The position numbers and the translations under genes are program-made. From the NCBI GenBank assembly GCA_965203275.1, contig OZ241865.1, positions 2,048,001-2,112,000 on the forward strand: DNA of 64,000 bases. Direction: 5' to 3'. Origin of the DNA: Bdellovibrionales bacterium. Lineage in GTDB: Bacteria; Bdellovibrionota; Bdellovibrionia; Bdellovibrionales; JAUICD01. Shown here in pieces: positions 8,514-63,078 of this stretch (position 1 is the first letter of the stretch; each line of letters starts with the position of its first letter). Below the pieces are notes generated by a model, which was given only the letters and a program-made list of their open reading frames with translations, had not been told where the DNA came from and ran no database searches.

Positions 8514-8637
8514 TCCTGAGTTTGACAGTTGATTTGCAAATTTGGGCATCTTCTTTTTTAAGAATGCTTTATTTATAGGTGTTAGAGAAATTTGTAAGCC
8601 TTAATTCTTTGAATTTTGTTAGAATTTTTAGTGAAAA
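8514..8637. repeat. ~125-bp repeat starting TCCTGAGTTTGACAGTTG (diverged copy at 49683-49803)
   Basis: Alignable by eye with 49683-49803. The 17-bp end motif also occurs inverted at 49617-49633 and 53900-53916. Confidence 0.7.
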
Positions 8638-9082
8638 AGATAAGAAGGCGAATAGCCTTCGGCTGGCAACCAGAAAGTGACCAGAGGTCAGTTCACTTTG
8701 AGTGGAGCAATTAACTCCCTAACCCCACCTACCACCCTTTGATTCTGCTTCTCCATTTTGTCTGTATGAGTAGAATGCGAAGGCAGGCTTCCGAAGTCCT
8801 CAACCTTCGCTTGCTTTCAAAGGAGCAAGCGGGTCTGCGGAAGATCTACAGCCTGCCTTCGCATCTCACTCATAATATTCTTTATTTTTTGAGAGTTACG
8901 CAGAATCTAAAAAAAATAAAAAAACAAAAAAAGGAACTTTTTCCTTAACATGTGGTCAAAAAACGAAGAGATCCTCCCCTACTAAAAGTAAACGGACTTT
9001 TGAGACATTGCTCTTTTTGGACAGCGATAGCTGTCAGAGCAATGTCCAAAAGTGACCAGAGGTCACTTTACTTTTAGTGAAA
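8627..9082 (-). repeat. Structured ~145-bp repeat cluster 1 (half copy 8627-8704, full copy 8940-9082)
   Basis: Reverse complement matches TTTCACT(C/A)AAA...CCTCTGG...TTT(G/T)AGT...TGTTAAGGAAA. Confidence 0.85.
8739..8910. ncRNA. Candidate structured RNA (long rod-like hairpin with central bubble, 6S-like architecture)
   Basis: Nested pairings: GATTCTGC/GCAGAATC, TATGAGT/ACTCATA, a perfect 15-bp ATGCGAAGGCAGGCT/AGCCTGCCTTCGCAT and CGCTTGCT/AGCAAGCG. GC-rich within an AT-rich context. Confidence 0.35.
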
Positions 9083-9083
9083 C

Positions 9084-12000
9084 CTAAAGCTCGTGGTGAT
9101 TTTGGACATTGACTCCGTGATAAAAGTAGCGAAGAATATCAACATGACTCCATGGCTCTGTAACATCTTCAGGCTTTGCGGCATTTTCTGTAGGTGGTTC
9201 TTCATCATCCCATCCTACACGGGCTAGCCACATAGCACCTCTCTGAGATAAACCACGACCATGACCTCCTTCACCTCTGTAACGACCACATCTCTCTCCG
9301 CTTGGCATCTTCTTTGCTCTAAATATAGGTAGACTGCTACTTGTTCTTGTGCTATCTCTTCGGCAAGCATGATATTCTGTCATAGCTAACTGCCCTCGAT
9401 ATGTGAGGATCACACCCACTGTGGCTTCCACTGCTTCATCGCTTCTTAAAAATTCTCTGTTTCTTACTCTGCCACTTCTTACTTCTTTAGAACCTGGATA
9501 AGACTGAAACCATGTTGTAGGGTCTACATCCCATCCCATTGCTTTGACATGTCTATTCTCTTTGATCTTACTGAAAAGATATGACCTGGCTGCTATCACT
9601 TGAGCCTTTAAAGCAGCAAAGGCAGTCCTTGAAGCACTTTGATCATCTGTCAATGGCATCTCACCCGGAACAACTGAACGGAGATATTGTTCTACAGGAA
9701 CATCATTGATCAAGCTCCATTCCATCATGTCATTGCTTTTTCTTTTAGTAATAGCTATACGAAAGTGACCTCTATAATATCTATTCACTCGACGGCGACC
9801 AGTACCCCATCTCACTTGAGTATCTCCATGCTCTCGATCTGAAATAATTCTCATCTGATAAACATTGTTGCCATTCTCATATCCGATTAAGTTAGAAAGA
9901 GGATATGTTTGCCACTGGCTATCTTGATGATCATTAGATCTATAACGAAGAATATTTTCATTACAATTGAGTTGATTATGACACCTGATACTCATTTCAA
10001 TATCATGTACTTTTTGAGCTAGAACAACTTTGCTCTGCTCTGGTTGCTCAGGGTTAAATACTTCTAAGGTAAATCCGTCATTTCTGTTTTTCAAAGACAG
10101 ATGTGCCATATCTTCGTCTCTTGTAAATGGGTAGGGGTCTAAGCGTGGTTTAGCAATAGGGAAAAGCTTAACATGTGTGATAGCATAAGCATTGACATGA
10201 GGAGCTTCTAAAGCTGCTCTGACTTGAGTTAAACGGACTCTATCAGCAGCCCATTGACTCCTTGGATCAGACTGGGTGCTTGTTCGTTGCCCTTGATTTG
10301 GCTGCTCTGCTCTTGCCCTTCGCTCTCTTGCTTCTCGTTCTCTTCTTTCTTCTCGTTCCCTTCTTTCTCTCGCCCTTGCTTGTGCATTGTATTCTCTTTG
10401 CTCCTCTCGAACTGCTTGGAGTGTAGTTATCTCATCTTCTGTTAATATGGATGCAGGGTATGTAAAATACGAATTAACAGTATACCCAGATTTTTTTTTT
10501 GTTACTCGAAGAATGCATGCCTCTACCCATGTACCTAAGCTTTTAAAACCACAGCTACTGATCTCAAGCACAAAAATTTCATGTTCTTGTTTTTCAAAAG
10601 TATTAGTAATGCTGAAATTATTGTCTCTTTGTTCAGGAGTCATAGAAACCCATTGTTGGACAAGTTGCGAAATATTATCCTCTATCCTTTGCTTTTCACT
10701 TCCTCCTGTTGCTTGAAGTGCAGTTATTTCATCTTCAGTTAATACAGACAAAGGAAGCCTAACAGAAGTCGAAGAACAACTCACATTATTACAATTATAT
10801 CTCGTTTGAATCGATACCAATTGTCCTTCTCTACAACGGGAAGACGTATTAATAACCAAAGCTTCACGTCTTTCATAGTTATCAACGATTTTGATATTAT
10901 CTTCTCTTTGTTCAGGAGTCATAGAAGTCCAGCGTTGGACATGTGCCTCAATATTATGCTCTCTTCTCTGTCTTGCTATTCTTTCTTCTCTTTGTGCATT
11001 GTATTCCCTTTGCTCCTCTTGAGCTAATTGAAGTGCAGTTTTTTCATCTTCAGTTAATACAGACCAAGGAAGCCTAACAGAAGGGAAAGAATAAATCTCA
11101 TTACGATTACCTCTAATATGGTTTTTTTGCTTTACATCAAGGCATTGTTGTCCATTTCTACAGTTAGAAACTATATTAAGAAAAAAACCTTCACATTTTA
11201 TTTCAGAGTTATTAACATTTCTGATAAAATTTTCTCTTACCATAGGAGACAGAGATATCCAGTGTTGGACAAGTTTCGAAATGTTATTCTCTATCCTTCG
11301 TCGATCTCTACTTGTTGTTGCATCTCTTTCTCTCTGTTCTGCCCTTTCTCTTCTTTCTGTTGCATCTCTTTCTCTTCTCTGTTCTGCCCTTTCTCTTTGC
11401 TCTGCTGCTTCCCTTGCTTCTCTTTGTGCATTGTATTCTCTTTGCTCTTGTTCAATAGTTTGAAGTGCATTTCTTTCATCTTCAGTTAATACATCCAAAA
11501 GGAATGTAGTATTTGAATCAGAACTACTCTCTTGCCCTCTTCTCTTTACTCGAAGGCATTGACCTCCCCAACAGTTATAGATACTAAGAACAAAAGCTTC
11601 ACGTCTTTCAGAAGTATTAAGAGTTATGATATTATTGTATCTTTGTTCAGGAGTCATAGAAATCCAACGTTGGACAAGTTGCTCGATGTTATTCTCTCTC
11701 CTTCGCCTTTCTCTTCTTTCTGCTGTTGCTCTCTCTCTTTGCTCTGCTCTTGCCCTTCGCTCTCTTGCTTCTCTTTGTGCATTGTATTCTTCTTGAACGG
11801 CTTGAAGTGCAGTTAATTCATCTTCAGTTAATACAGACAAAGGATAAATAACAGTCCGTTGATCACCGTTTCTAAAAGATTTTATTTGAAGGCATTGTCT
11901 GCTTGCAGGAAATTCTCTTCTACATCGACGTGAGCTAGTAAGGCTAAGAGAAAAATTCGTCAAATCACTTGACCTTCTGTCTTCAGGAGTCATAGAAGTC

Positions 12001-61567: not shown

Positions 61568-61591
61568 AGCCTTATAATTGAATTAATGGGT

Positions 61592-62326
61592 TTATCTCAC
61601 TCCGTCTTGCACATTTACAATTGTCTTAGTCTGATTCATTGTCCATTCATCATTCTGACCACCTCCAAGATTTCCAATAGCTCCAACAGTAAACTCTGGT
61701 CGATCTCTATTTGATGCATTTACTCTTGCTTCACCAACCCAGGTTCCATTGCTTAAAGCATTTGTATTATCATCCTTACAACCAACAGTTCCAGTTTGAC
61801 ATCCTGACTTAGTAGATCCGGCAGTTTGAGGAGTTTTTCCACTTCCACAATTGCACCGACCAATTTTTGTGGAAGCGGTTAAGTCAAAGGCAGTATTTGA
61901 AACACCTAACTGTAAGCCACACCCTTTTCCACTACCACCAGAAACACATAAAGCAAATGTGTCAATATCAGTGGTATTGACTGGCACGGGTCCATTATAC
62001 CCTGTAGGAAGTCCAGTCGTTAAATTTAGATTAGTCCCGCCTGACGGAGTATCATGAGAAAAACCTGCACGATACTGAAGATTCCCATTTGGATTAAAGC
62101 CCGCTTGATATATATTTGGAGTTGCAAATCCATACTGTGAAGCAAAAGTCACTTGTGACGTGTAAATACCTGACATCAAGTTTTTTGCTTCTGTTTGCTG
62201 TGCTCGTCTTTGAAACTGTTGATAGTTTGGTATTGCAATAACTGCCAATATACCAATAATTGCTACTACGACCATTAGCTCGATTAAGCTAAAGCCTCTT
62301 TGGTTTTTAAAAATTGATTTTCTCAT
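61592..62326 (-). CDS. pilA: Type IV pilin (PilA-like) 2
   Basis: AAAGGAG RBS and [27 protein letters not shown]. Cys-rich variable region. Confidence 0.9.
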
Positions 62327-62434
62327 TTTCAAACTCCTTTTTTAAATTTATTAAATTATGGATAGCTTCTTATACTATCCTTCTTTACCTTTTAGTCAGG
62401 CTTGTTTGTATCCCTTAAATGCTCAAACCTAACC

Positions 62435-63078
62435 TTTTTCACTCAAAATGAACTGACCTCTGTTTCACTAAAAGTGGTCTAGCCTCTGGCTACTTTTGGG
62501 CAATGACCGCAAAGGCTTTCGCCTTTGACAAAATGGTCATTGCCTCAAAAGCCTGACCACTTTTAGTAGGAAGGATCCTTTCCTCTTTTGACACGATGTT
62601 AAGGAAAAAGATCTCCTTCTGACGTTTGCTCTGACAGCTATCGCTGTCCAAAAAGAGCAATGTCTCAAAAGCCTGTTCATTTTGAGTAGGAAGGATCTCC
62701 TTCTCTCTTAACACCATGTTAAGGAGTTTGTTTCACTAAAAGTAAACTAGCCTCTGTTTCACTCAAAGTGAACTGGCCTCTGGCCACTTTTGGACAATGA
62801 CCGCAAAGGCTTTCGCCTTTGACAAAATGGTCATTGTCTCAAAAGCCTGTTCACTTTGAGTAGGGAGGATCTCTTCGTTTCTTAACACCATGTTAAGGAA
62901 AACATCCTTCTAATAGTTAGCCCGACGGCTTTCGCCGTCGATCAAAGGCTGGCTACCTCAAAAGTCCGTTTACTTTTAGTAGAAAGGATCTCCTTGTCTC
63001 TTAACACCATGTTAAGGAAAAAGTTCCTTCTTTTTTTCACTCAAAGTGGCCTGAGTCCTGGTCACTTTGAGTGAAACC
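62435..63078 (+). repeat. Structured repeat cluster 10
   Basis: Full copies ~62463-62608 and 62756-62902, nested 5' fragments and 3' halves. About 200 bp is nearly identical to ~31790-31990. Confidence 0.9.

Follow-up and report, generated by a model that had tools for sequence, protein, structure and literature searches.

The window, i.e. the whole 64,000-nt stretch of DNA analysed here, carries a hairpin-forming intergenic repeat (family A) in 10 clusters, together with Rpn-like PD-(D/E)XK genes, cassettes with four-helix-bundle genes, and a truncated copy of a second repeat, family B (Table 1). The family A tail, TTAACANNNTGTTAAGGAAA, has 40 matches in the window at up to 2 mismatches (0.08 expected), and the head, TTTCACTMAAA, has 50 at up to 1 mismatch (11.5 expected; largest shuffle 19). 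A head-to-tail regular expression returns 20 window matches, 18 of them separate copies of 138-145 nt; the 168-nt matches, 3 in all, are each preceded by a 26-nt head fragment, and one holds an extra copy. A profile that combines every copy in the genome gives 47 matches in the 10 intergenic clusters. This bears out the earlier note, which had seen about 20 near-full copies and further partial ones in about 10 clusters. The starts it cited at 18310, 18644, 47669, 51729, 52020, and 62463 are those of full copies, as is 41237 (cited as 41238), while 31797 is the base before a copy start (31798). At 39717 and 52720 lie copies on the minus strand, whose low (tail) ends these positions mark.

Table 1. 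Family A clusters and other features of the window (positions in nt from its first base).
Feature	Position	Strand	Parts and remarks
Cluster 1	8644..9083	-	5' fragment 8644-8709; full copy 8943-9082, its head adjoining the stop of a minus-strand gene that ends at 9084
Cluster 2	18307..19336	both	Full copies 18310-18448 (+), 18644-18787 (+), 18916-19059 (+), 19123-19264 (-)
Cluster 2, tail-only modules	18516-18564, 18603-18638, 18875-18910		Behind heptamer (GGATCCC)n bodies
Cluster 2, 5' fragment	19272-19336	-	
Cluster 3	31693..32395	+	Clearest nesting; sequence read, plus profile matches
Cluster 3, head fragments	A5 31693-31718; B5 31719-31767; C5 31772-31797	+	
Cluster 3, full copy D	31798-31939	+	
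Cluster 3, 3' fragments after D	31954-32071, 32078-32174, 32181-32303	+	
Cluster 3, further 3' fragment	32311-32395	+	
Four-helix-bundle gene cassette, Avd-like	32361..32902	-	ORF 32455-32760; heptamer arrays and family A tails on either side
Cluster 4	34062..34660	-	Full copies 34250-34390, 34517-34658; 3' fragments 34062-34152, 34163-34238, 34396-34493
Family B, truncated copy	39150..39262	-	Second repeat (~150 nt); read from sequence, boundaries approximate
Cluster 5	39243..39887	-	Full copies 39340-39480, 39568-39705, 39720-39861 (the last with TTGAAC allele and head TTTCCCT)
Cluster 5, fragments	Head 39862-39887; 3' 39486-39562; 5' 39243-39280	-	
Rpn-like PD-(D/E)XK gene	39964..40998	+	Pfam Transposase_31; TIGR01784 52.0 vs cut-off 52.1; repeat clusters on either side
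Cluster 6	41143..41494	+	5' fragment 41144-41236; full copy 41237-41381; 3' fragment 41400-41494
Cluster 7	47667..48542	+	Full copies 47669-47811, 48017-48159; tail-less copy 48426-48540
Rpn-like PD-(D/E)XK gene	48554..49465	-	Pfam PDDEXK_2; TIGR01784 104 bits; a family A copy starts 12 nt beyond the stop
Cluster 8	51481..52174	+	Head fragments 51481-51571; full copies 51579-51722 (P1 arms mismatched, ATGCAT with ATTTAT), 51729-51869, 52020-52158
Cluster 9	52655..52863	-	P1/P2-only mini-copy 52655-52698; near-full copy 52708-52863
Cluster 10	62437..63076	+	Full copies 62463-62604, 62757-62898
Cluster 10, head fragments	62437-62462, 62731-62756	+	
Cluster 10, 3' fragments	62617-62725, 62913-63032	+	
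Cluster 10, P1/P2-only palindrome	63035-63076		
Second four-helix-bundle cassette	63643..64000	+	Reversed tail 63643-63662, heptamers, leader, ORF (starts 63804, continues past window end)

Family A is a 146-base DNA unit that runs from (TG)TTTCACT to TGTTAAGGAAA(A). It carries no ORF, and none of its copies lies inside the 23S rRNA gene. Copies were collected from the whole host genome (2.57 Mb, single contig, from an uncultured Bdellovibrio-like bacterium), as the earlier note had suggested: a strict pattern search yields 518 full copies, 456 of them distinct, and the profile search yields 1442 matches that cover 167,253 bp, so that copies and fragments make up 6.5% of the genome, with some matches counted twice where the palindromic body is matched on both strands. 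The matches divide almost evenly between strands (735 minus, 707 plus), and only 2,971 of the 167,253 bases fall inside ORFs, the gene calls being crude ORFs. Family A occupies 378 of 1662 intergenic regions, including all three kinds, i.e. convergent, divergent, and tandem. The ends of the unit were mapped with 149 near-identical pairs (≤2 mismatches, >5 kb apart): shared identity ends 0-4 nt before TTTCACT in 73 of these pairs and 3-4 nt past TGTTAAGG in 44. The 5' flank is not fixed, but it closes with TTG or CTG in about half of the copies; most copies have GTAG 3' of the P1 stem, in the direction in which the unit is read. A model built from the 18 window copies (R1) matches this genus and three small contigs of one other bin, and nothing else among the sequences searched.

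The predicted fold is a Y-shaped body with a three-way junction and 41 base pairs in four helices, followed by a separate tail hairpin. The helices are P1 (13 bp), P2 (5 bp with a TCT loop), P3 (~17 bp), and P4 (5-7 bp), and each occurs as about 7-9 discrete, mutually compensating alleles; all the P1-P4 variants listed in the earlier note are present. Its claim that pairing is kept while stems vary also holds. RNAalifold on the 18 window copies gives 41 pairs, 27 of which have changed on both sides (a count that is not tree-aware), and 97.4% of cells are paired compared with 81.5% in shuffles, a value that 0 of 500 shuffles reach; sliding the partners by 1-3 columns lowers pairing to 28-44%. 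Across the 456 distinct genomic copies and 38 pairs, 17,021 of 17,321 cells are standard pairs. The two arms of one helix are tightly linked (normalised mutual information 0.72-0.95), with most neighbouring unpaired modules at 0.5-0.7 and exceptions at P3a-P4a and L3a-P3a, which reach 0.72. Such compensation could arise without selection, given that a nested block swap moves both arms of a helix together. About 20% of adjacent P1 pairs have at least 2 mismatches in 10. We infer that family A folds in vivo.

Could these helices be maintained because the copies are structured non-coding RNAs, either cis-regulatory or small RNAs, under selection for their RNA fold? The 41 covarying pairs with their strong controls would be expected of such a family, as would the fold energy of about -38 to -46 kcal/mol (DNA parameters), and there is a weak, non-significant Rfam match to STnc460 (E 0.13, 22 bits vs a gathering score of 70). 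However, this is the best Rfam match that family A has, and no family reaches its gathering score in the window. The pair types also speak against an RNA: Watson-Crick pairs make up 98.09%, A.C 0.70%, other combinations 0.69%, and G.T 0.51%, such that wobble is no commoner than A.C and the Watson-Crick share is 98.1% whichever strand is considered. Copies are found in either orientation, whether the spacer is convergent, divergent, or tandem; hundreds of them are truncated, nested, or arrayed head to tail, and family A accounts for 6.5% of the genome. This pairing mix, together with the mixed orientation, truncation, nesting, and tandem arrays, argues for a repeat that acts at the DNA level rather than an RNA gene, and we regard the RNA reading as very improbable. 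The earlier note had offered a structured ncRNA family as one of two options, and this option is not supported, on the same grounds; the other, a structure-keeping, recombining, non-autonomous element, fits the discrete alleles, the linked arms, and the nested, truncated, and arrayed copies. In our assessment, family A is probably a discrete, lineage-specific, non-autonomous, selfish DNA repeat.

Nesting is clearest in cluster 3, where the P1 3' arms GTTTAT, GTTCAC, and GACCAC downstream of copy D pair with head fragments C5, B5, and A5 in that order. Likewise, in cluster 10 the P1 arm GTTCAT of the 62617-62725 fragment pairs with the head fragment at 62437. Genome-wide, stack-paired heads and P1 3' arms at least 200 nt apart match perfectly in 69 of 278 cases, compared with 30.8 in 200 shuffles (maximum 47). 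Heads abut CCTTAACA in 50 of the 518 full copies and ..CCTCTG in at least 51; the first type of junction is found in cluster 6, where the head abuts the centre of a tail palindrome in reverse orientation (..CCTTAACA followed directly by TTTCACT). Host copies at nesting junctions often lack 10-15 nt. Because of this, and because only 69 of 278 halves match, many fragments need another origin, e.g. deletion or recombination. Whole composites are also copied: identical ones recur at distant sites of the genome, and the two full copies of cluster 7 are identical and lie within a 348-bp tandem duplication. Family B has a single fixed location within family A, where CTTTTG meets the first P3 base. 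As no empty site was found for family A, we infer insertion only from the nesting and from the points at which shared identity stops.

The ends of the unit form imperfect terminal inverted repeats (TTTCACTAA vs TTTCCTTAA, 7 of 9 positions alike), and the host genome encodes 9 IS256-like and 6 IS4-like transposase ORFs, as one might expect of a classical MITE, i.e. an element derived by deletion from a DDE insertion sequence and mobilised in trans by the transposase of that sequence. Yet the flanks of the 518 copies show no clear excess of target duplications of 2-8 bp at any offset compared with shuffled flanks, whereas the IS256-like element makes clean 8-bp duplications and has ends (GAGCATGTCC...) unlike those of family A. 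Neither transposase is enriched near copies (IS256 22% and IS4 17%, vs 29.8% of genes), and a MITE origin is thus, in our view, highly unlikely.

An origin as a REPIN or IS200/IS605-type element, which a Y1 HUH enzyme (RAYT/TnpA) mobilises in single-stranded form, would account for the hairpins, the high copy number, the extragenic location, and the missing target duplication, and both the TTG or CTG that often precedes the head and the GTAG after the P1 stem recall such elements. Genome searches for Y1/RAYT, reverse transcriptase, IS110, and TnpB genes found none in the host, including the RAYT/TnpA(Y1) or reverse transcriptase gene that the earlier note had proposed to look for. Specifically, PF01797 (Y1 HUH) does not match anywhere in the genome, a single contig with 90.4% marker completeness, and the same search is positive in 6 of 14 control genomes. 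The sister species does have a single Y1 gene (E 8e-40), but this gene resembles a common IS200-type copy that carries its own small hairpin ends, and no significant R1 match lies within 1.5 kb on each side of it (best E 0.39). Plus and minus copies of family A are mixed in every 100-kb bin of the host genome without replichore bias, a weak test since the GC skew is weak and the replichores are poorly defined. Finally, a 146-nt unit with a three-way junction is not a 20-40 nt palindrome, and overall we find a Y1-driven origin improbable.

Both species of the genus carry family A, with different alleles. Pairing at these 41 pairs reaches 93.6% among 44 distinct copies from the sister species, compared with 76.5% in shuffles, and 32 of 41 pairs have changed on both sides, in an alignment that was fitted to the model and leans towards it.

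Two kinds of neighbouring gene stand out as the best candidates for mobilising family A, the link being only correlative in both cases: the Rpn-like nucleases and the machinery that moves the four-helix-bundle gene cassettes. Rpn-like ORFs have a copy within 300 nt in 48 of 52 cases (92%), compared with 29.8% of all genes (odds ratio 31, p 1e-21), and 48% have copies on both sides; counted by locus the association is 36 of 37, and it is also true of diverged paralogues. In the sister species, a copy lies within 700 nt of 7 of 23 Rpn matches vs a background of 18%, such that the link is weak there and not reproduced, and one genome of the same family as the host has 16 Rpn genes and no family A. 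RpnA is described as a DNA endonuclease that promotes RecA-independent recombination, for which its authors discuss a template-switch model (PMC5350276). Four-helix-bundle genes adjoin family A in 11 of 11 cases in the host and in 12 of 19 in the sister species (background 11%). Any role of either protein in the spread of family A is putative.

The host cassettes raise a further reading, in which family A is a gene-less end or flank module of hairpin-bounded four-helix-bundle and Rpn cassettes and spreads by whatever mobilises them. All 11 four-helix-bundle cassettes share one layout (reversed tail, heptamers, leader, ORF, heptamers, reversed tail, reversed body), in 4 of the 8 full-length Rpn genes inspected a heptamer array adjoins a conserved leader, with a reversed tail in front in three of them, and the tail, present in 1037 copies genome-wide, also closes heptamer-only bodies; the adjoining copies in the sister species fit as well. 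By contrast, another genus has four-helix-bundle cassettes with heptamer-like arrays but without family A, and the association may therefore reflect two selfish elements that share sites. Moreover, the majority of the 518 full copies have no cassette nearby, and shared identity stops at the limits of the 146-nt unit rather than at those of the cassettes. We see this reading as unlikely, if less so than the other alternatives, and favour an independent selfish repeat.

Such a repeat would act as folded single-stranded or cruciform DNA and may spread by three routes. First, intergenic DNA would receive copies of the whole unit, with the unpaired loops of older copies as frequent sites, i.e. the P2 loop after CCTCTG, the tail-palindrome centre after TTAACA, and the P4/J region; this would split the host copy into a 5' half and a 3' half without target duplication, possibly through a break in a hairpin loop that is repaired by template switching onto another copy. 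Second, whole composites would undergo tandem amplification and be duplicated elsewhere in the genome, and third, recombination between copies at conserved linkers would reshuffle whole helices. Recopying might be limited to copies that still fold, or the arms might be corrected against each other while folded, and either process would let each helix persist as a limited repertoire of alleles that compensate each other.

Classical bacterial MITEs are small, intergenic, and non-coding, with imperfect terminal inverted repeats, and family A resembles them in all these respects. It differs in the lack of target duplication, and the sole parent insertion sequence compared, the IS256-like one, has other ends. 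BIMEs are bound by the host factors IHF, gyrase, and Pol I. Family A is similar to the REP, BIME, and REPIN elements with RAYT, as described in the sources cited, in being extragenic, high-copy palindromic DNA that persists in a lineage without target duplication (PMC3116915, PMC3333891, PMC3733652), and its clusters, like BIMEs, are mosaics of few hairpin types and conserved linkers in varied combinations. However, REPs are described as palindromes of 20-40 nt, as a stem-loop or doublet, with a GTAG or CGTC tag at the 5' end (PMC3733652), whereas family A has 146 nt, a three-way junction and tail hairpin, and its GTAG 3' of the P1 stem. Unlike the REP, BIME, and REPIN elements of these accounts, its helices have about 7-9 compensating alleles and its copies nest in each other's loops, and unlike REPIN/RAYT systems no Y1 gene was found in its host, and it does not flank that of the sister species.

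For the GIY-YIG single-strand nucleases Ssn, 71% of the ssn homologues are reported to be flanked by NTS/SRM hairpin repeats, 42% on both sides (PMC11893778). Family A is comparable in that hundreds of hairpin repeats surround genes and a partner protein is sought through the spatial association of gene and repeat. Its neighbours differ, being Rpn-like PD-(D/E)XK and four-helix-bundle genes; the host genome has no Ssn-like gene, its sole GIY-YIG match lying in a 653-aa frame. A four-helix-bundle gene in a hairpin-type cassette also recalls the 23S rRNA intervening sequences with a PF05635/Avd-like ORF as described in PMC10053308, although family A is ORF-less and outside the 23S rRNA gene. In the host and two relatives, the four-helix-bundle genes lie between arrays of 7-nt units and have a conserved leader. 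The earlier note could assign the repeat to no known class, which is too strong: family A does not belong to any of the described families that could be tested, but it fits the broad REP/BIME/MITE-like class of intergenic palindromic repeats, and is a new and unusually elaborate case of the selfish palindromic repeats that other bacteria are known to carry.

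The repeat motifs reported for the window are real: the tail of family A, the ~146-nt multi-hairpin repeat, is matched there 40 times against 0.08 expected, and its head motif (TTTCACT) is likewise in excess (50 matches vs 11.5 expected). In the genome that holds the window at bases 2,048,001–2,112,000, a single contig of 2,567,810 bp with 35.1% G+C, the tail has 1037 copies and the head-to-tail pattern 642 matches, 20 of them within the window. Keeping one match per tail with a length of 136–148 nt, we count 518 full copies, 456 of them distinct. A profile built from full copies finds 1442 matches (47 within the window), a number that exceeds the copy count because the palindromic body is sometimes matched again on the opposite strand, and the union of these matches covers 167,253 bp, i.e. 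6.5% of the genome. The presence of near-identical copies at distant sites points to recent spread.

Single copies fold into one common shape of about -32 to -46 kcal/mol (DNA parameters). The outer stem P1 (13 bp) consists of ACT, A or C, AAA, and a 6-nt core; P2 is a small hairpin of 5–6 bp with a TCT loop; and the long stem P3 (~17 bp, including a TTTTG/CAAAA foot) is topped by P4 (5–7 bp, 4-nt loop), with A-rich unpaired bases joining P4 to the P3 3' arm. Downstream of P1 follow AGTAGG(G)AGGATC... and the tail hairpin (TTTC-TTAACA, a 3-nt loop, and TGTTAAGGAAA). To delimit the unit, we compared 149 pairs of copies that carry no more than 2 mismatches and are separated by more than 5 kb. 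Identity stops 0–4 nt before TTTCACT in 73 of these pairs and 3–4 nt past TGTTAAGG in 44, while the other pairs have longer, composite flanks in common. Imperfect inverted repeats, TTTCACTAA and TTTCCTTAA, bound the unit, and no target duplication of 2–8 bp is found at any offset.

Pairing is retained across copies that differ in sequence. Among 18 aligned window copies, 27 of 41 pairs show changes on both sides, and 97.4% of cells pair, compared with 81.5% after shuffling (0 of 500 shuffles reach 97.4%) and 28–44% when partner columns are slid. Genome-wide, 17,021 of 17,321 cells over 38 pairs are standard pairs, a statistic that ignores the kinship of copies, and the stems fall into discrete alleles, about 8 main P1 cores, 7 P2 arms, 9 P3 arms, and 9 P4 arms. 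The mix-and-match stems of the earlier note are borne out. Normalised mutual information between the two arms of a helix ranges from 0.72 in P1, where 90 nt separate them, to 0.95 in P4; most neighbouring modules that do not pair are less tightly linked (0.5–0.7, with P3a/P4a and L3a/P3a reaching 0.72). Neighbouring P1 alleles are one pair change apart, both in the series GTGAAC, GTAAAC, ATAAAC, ATAAAT and in the series GTGAAC, ATGAAC, ATGAGC, and some true double substitutions must therefore have occurred. Part of the compensation pattern needs no selection, because a nested block swap brings both arms along. At least 9 of 10 positions are paired in 589 of 732 adjacent P1 pairs; the ~20% with two or more mismatches in ten are chimeras.

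The earlier note left open a structure-selected element or a noncoding RNA family, and of these the DNA element is the better supported. Of all cells, 98.09% are Watson–Crick pairs, 0.51% G.T, 0.70% A.C, and 0.69% other mismatches. Since G.T is no more frequent than A.C, wobble pairs are not tolerated on either strand, as expected from the logic of a DNA duplex and not of RNA. No Rfam family matches at its threshold (best weak match E 0.13). The share of spacers that contain family A is 19% (tandem), 28% (divergent), and 31% (convergent), and its profile matches are evenly oriented (707 plus vs 735 minus). Heads tend to face the flanking genes (228 vs 144 on the left, 231 vs 141 on the right), which is a geometric tendency only. 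No replichore bias is seen, in a genome where GC skew is weak, and the 23S rRNA gene has no copy inside.

A search of relatives with a covariance model built from the 18 window copies places the family in this genus and on small contigs assigned to one bin of a neighbouring genus. We find at least 104 scored matches each in this genome and in its sister species, the only other species of the genus, 12–13 matches on three small contigs (65–78% identical) that may or may not be members of that bin, and none in the 28 further genomes of the order that were searched. The sister species has genes ~70% identical to those of this genome and poor synteny, so that spacers are not alignable and empty sites are not readable. 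In the sister genome, of which 400 kb and targeted stretches were covered, the 400 kb hold 72 profile matches with the same scaffold and other stem alleles, and the 41 pairs are held at 93.6% vs 76.5% shuffled, in an alignment fitted to the model. The fold is thus kept in two species with genes only ~70% identical. Two narrow probes, from which the window's own records are possibly excluded, showed no other carrier: one allele-specific head pattern occurs in a genome-contig collection only in the sister-species record, and the exact 20-nt tail occurs in 3 metagenome contigs, where the body is absent. None of the titles and abstracts found on Rpn, REPIN/BIME, Bdellovibrionales sponge symbionts, and four-helix-bundle/IVS proteins describes the repeat.

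Parts of the window are also contained in runs X9–X12, labelled sponge metagenome. The X9 contigs differ from it by 0–35 letters over 297–1089 nt, and a close relative is therefore present there. Contigs of four runs on window 28001–47600 end at repeat clusters, where the only joints listed are repeat-to-repeat; every family A cluster breaks short-read assemblies of this symbiont-like lineage.

Copies are frequently nested. In one cluster of the window, three head fragments precede one full copy and three 3' fragments come after it; the outer fragments are paired through their P1 arms in strict nested order, as also at two further places (Table). Genome-wide, 69 of 278 stack-paired heads and P1 3' arms at least 200 nt apart are perfect, vs 30.8 when shuffled (largest 47). 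Nesting is real, yet it accounts for some of the fragments only. The breaks in host copies fall behind the P2 loop (following CCTCTG), within the P4/J region, and in the middle of reversed tail palindromes, where 50 of 518 heads sit (CCTTAACA directly before TTTCACT), and the junctions often lack 10 to 15 host bases. In profile coordinates, host break points were located for 35 of 84 nested pairs (gaps of about -10 to +15), and in these 35 they follow no fixed pattern. Identical composites are found again at distant sites, hence composites are copied too. Head-to-tail arrays have periods of 147 nt and 270 nt.

Further repeats occur within family A or next to its parts. Family B, a second repeat of ~150 nt, begins with GAGCTGGATCTTCAATTTATTTC and ends with GCGAATGGTAAT. 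Among the 40 nested cases listed, at least 7 have it as a clean insertion, always at the same point of family A, where CTTTTG borders the first G of P3. An alternative body, a GGATCCC heptamer array with CCGGGTTGCC-type starts, is closed by the family A tail, and the heptamer words GGATCCC and GGGATCC occur 419 and 461 times genome-wide. In the sister species (e.g. at loci L045 and L058), the P2 loop of many copies contains a mini-insert of 14 nt, CCTCT/CGAGGCGAGCCTCT/GG, in some cases twice, which is a still smaller nested repeat.

Family A is, we think probably, a non-autonomous DNA element. It would be recognised and copied as a folded single strand or cruciform and inserted without target duplication, by preference into the unpaired loops of older copies; tandem and segmental duplication would spread it further, and recombination at the conserved linkers would reshuffle it.

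The earlier note had also proposed a genome-wide search for a RAYT/TnpA(Y1), reverse transcriptase or other enzyme gene flanked by copies. In this genome there is no match to a Y1 HUH transposase, a reverse transcriptase, or IS110; TnpB has one short match (within a 1365-aa frame), GIY-YIG a single match (within a 653-aa frame), and there are only two tyrosine recombinases. The only Y1 gene of the sister species has small hairpin ends of its own, and no significant family A match lies within 1.5 kb of it. We considered an IS256-like element as parent and rejected it: its termini bear no relation to those of family A, and it shows no enrichment around family A copies. The seven IS256-like copies aligned agree at their ends and are bounded by clean 8-bp target duplications, by which the element looks active; one of them lies in a family A P4 hairpin (flank CGACGGCTC). 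Multi-copy gene clusters c7, c10, and c13 near copies have weak coiled-coil-like matches only (NCBIfam, PADLOC). A 674-aa protein between two repeat clusters of the window has several Tc3-type and other helix-turn-helix matches and no recognised catalytic domain.

Self-comparison of crude ORFs, together with Pfam, reveals large paralogue families, among them Rpn-like PD-(D/E)XK nucleases (52 ORFs at 37 loci) and four-helix-bundle proteins (PF05635, 11). Others are very large for a 2.57-Mb genome, which suggests a host-associated lifestyle: ankyrin proteins (128 ORFs), a 134-aa family of no assigned kind (79 ORFs, eight in a row at 209–212 kb), pilin-like proteins (35), and RCC1-repeat giants (18). 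A copy of family A lies within 300 nt of 29.8% of all genes on any side and of 4.5% on both. For Rpn-like ORFs these values are 92% (odds ratio 31, p 1e-21) and 48%, and for four-helix-bundle genes 11 of 11 and 45%. By locus, 36 of 37 Rpn loci have a copy within 300 nt, as does every member in 20 of 22 Rpn groups at 85% identity, and the element head supplies the stop codon in 3 of 8 full-length Rpn genes examined.

The association raises another reading, which we consider improbable, in which Rpn-family PD-(D/E)XK nucleases would cleave extruded hairpins in their unpaired loops, perhaps with the aid of the Avd-like four-helix-bundle protein from adjoining cassettes, and template-switch repair would insert another copy. 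If true, family A would be the natural DNA substrate of an undescribed mobilisation route, one that accounts for nesting, absent target duplication, mosaicism, and the absence of Y1, reverse transcriptase, and IS110 matches. It draws on a correlation in one genome and on published biochemistry of E. coli RpnA, the main text of which mentions no palindrome, hairpin, or inverted repeat (PMC5350276). Two comparisons count against a causal link: in the sister species, 7 of 23 Rpn matches have a copy within 700 nt vs an 18% background, and a relative with 16 Rpn genes has neither family A nor a comparable flank repeat. Two further candidate observations were discarded. The apparent interruption of an Rpn gene at 1.530 Mb of the genome proved to be a tandem duplication of 580 bp, and the high-copy segments taken for Rpn flank repeats in a family-level relative are the genes' own C-terminal coding repeats.

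The link to four-helix-bundle genes does repeat in the sister species, where 12 of 19 have a copy within 400 nt vs an 11% background. In the genome of the window, the cassettes run in the fixed order reversed tail, heptamers, leader, ORF, heptamers, reversed tail, and reversed body. The leader has an 11-bp inverted repeat, AAATTTCCTCC with GGAGGAAATTT, over the ribosome-binding site, which the repeat would sequester; it is almost unchanged between three genomes that otherwise have genes ~70% identical. In the neighbouring genus a four-helix-bundle cassette lies between heptamer-like arrays and family A is absent, and for this reason the cassettes and family A may be separate selfish elements with common sites.

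The window also holds a 452-nt inverted repeat, and the DNA that it brackets may be an invertible or a duplicated-inverted segment.

Table. Coordinates of features in the window (strand in brackets).
Feature	Window position	Remark
Nested cluster	31693–32303	seven successive units
Nested P1 pairing	62437–62725; 62731–63032	
P1 chimera	51579–51722	example
Family B copy	~39150–39262 (-)	
Heptamer arrays	18452–18553; 18800–18910; 32400–32440; 32840–32960; 47830–47875	
Tandem duplication, 348 bp	47636–48331	with full family A copy, heptamer module, and 3' fragment
674-aa protein	34706–36730 (-)	
Rpn-like genes	39964–40998 (+); 48554–49465 (-)	
Four-helix-bundle cassettes	32361–32902 (-); 63643–64000 (+)	
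Four-helix-bundle leader	32761–32830; 63740–63803	also at loci of the sister species (G001) and genome G004
Inverted repeat, 452 nt	52190–52641 / 63150–63601	96% complementary, around ~10.5 kb
Inverted paralogous pilin-like genes	52795–53595 (+); 61592–62332 (-)	inside the 452-nt inverted repeat
Inner inverted pair	54419–54549 with 59795–59925	inside the 452-nt inverted repeat
Type I restriction R subunit	55145–58276	inside the 452-nt inverted repeat

To our knowledge, how REP-like repeats spread is understood only for genomes with a RAYT or IS200-type enzyme, and members of the Rpn family have long carried the annotation "putative transposases" with no known element assigned to them. The system is a clean place to seek a new mobilising activity, with family A as a candidate substrate for the widespread, unexplained Rpn family and for the four-helix-bundle cassettes. 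Family A works as REP, BIME, and REPIN repeats do and partly resembles a MITE, but it falls short of each by the tests that define them: the genome has no RAYT, copies show no target duplication, and none of the insertion sequences compared is a parent. It matches no RNA family. Genome searches found no known hairpin-processing enzyme, and the family is far more elaborate than REP-like repeats.
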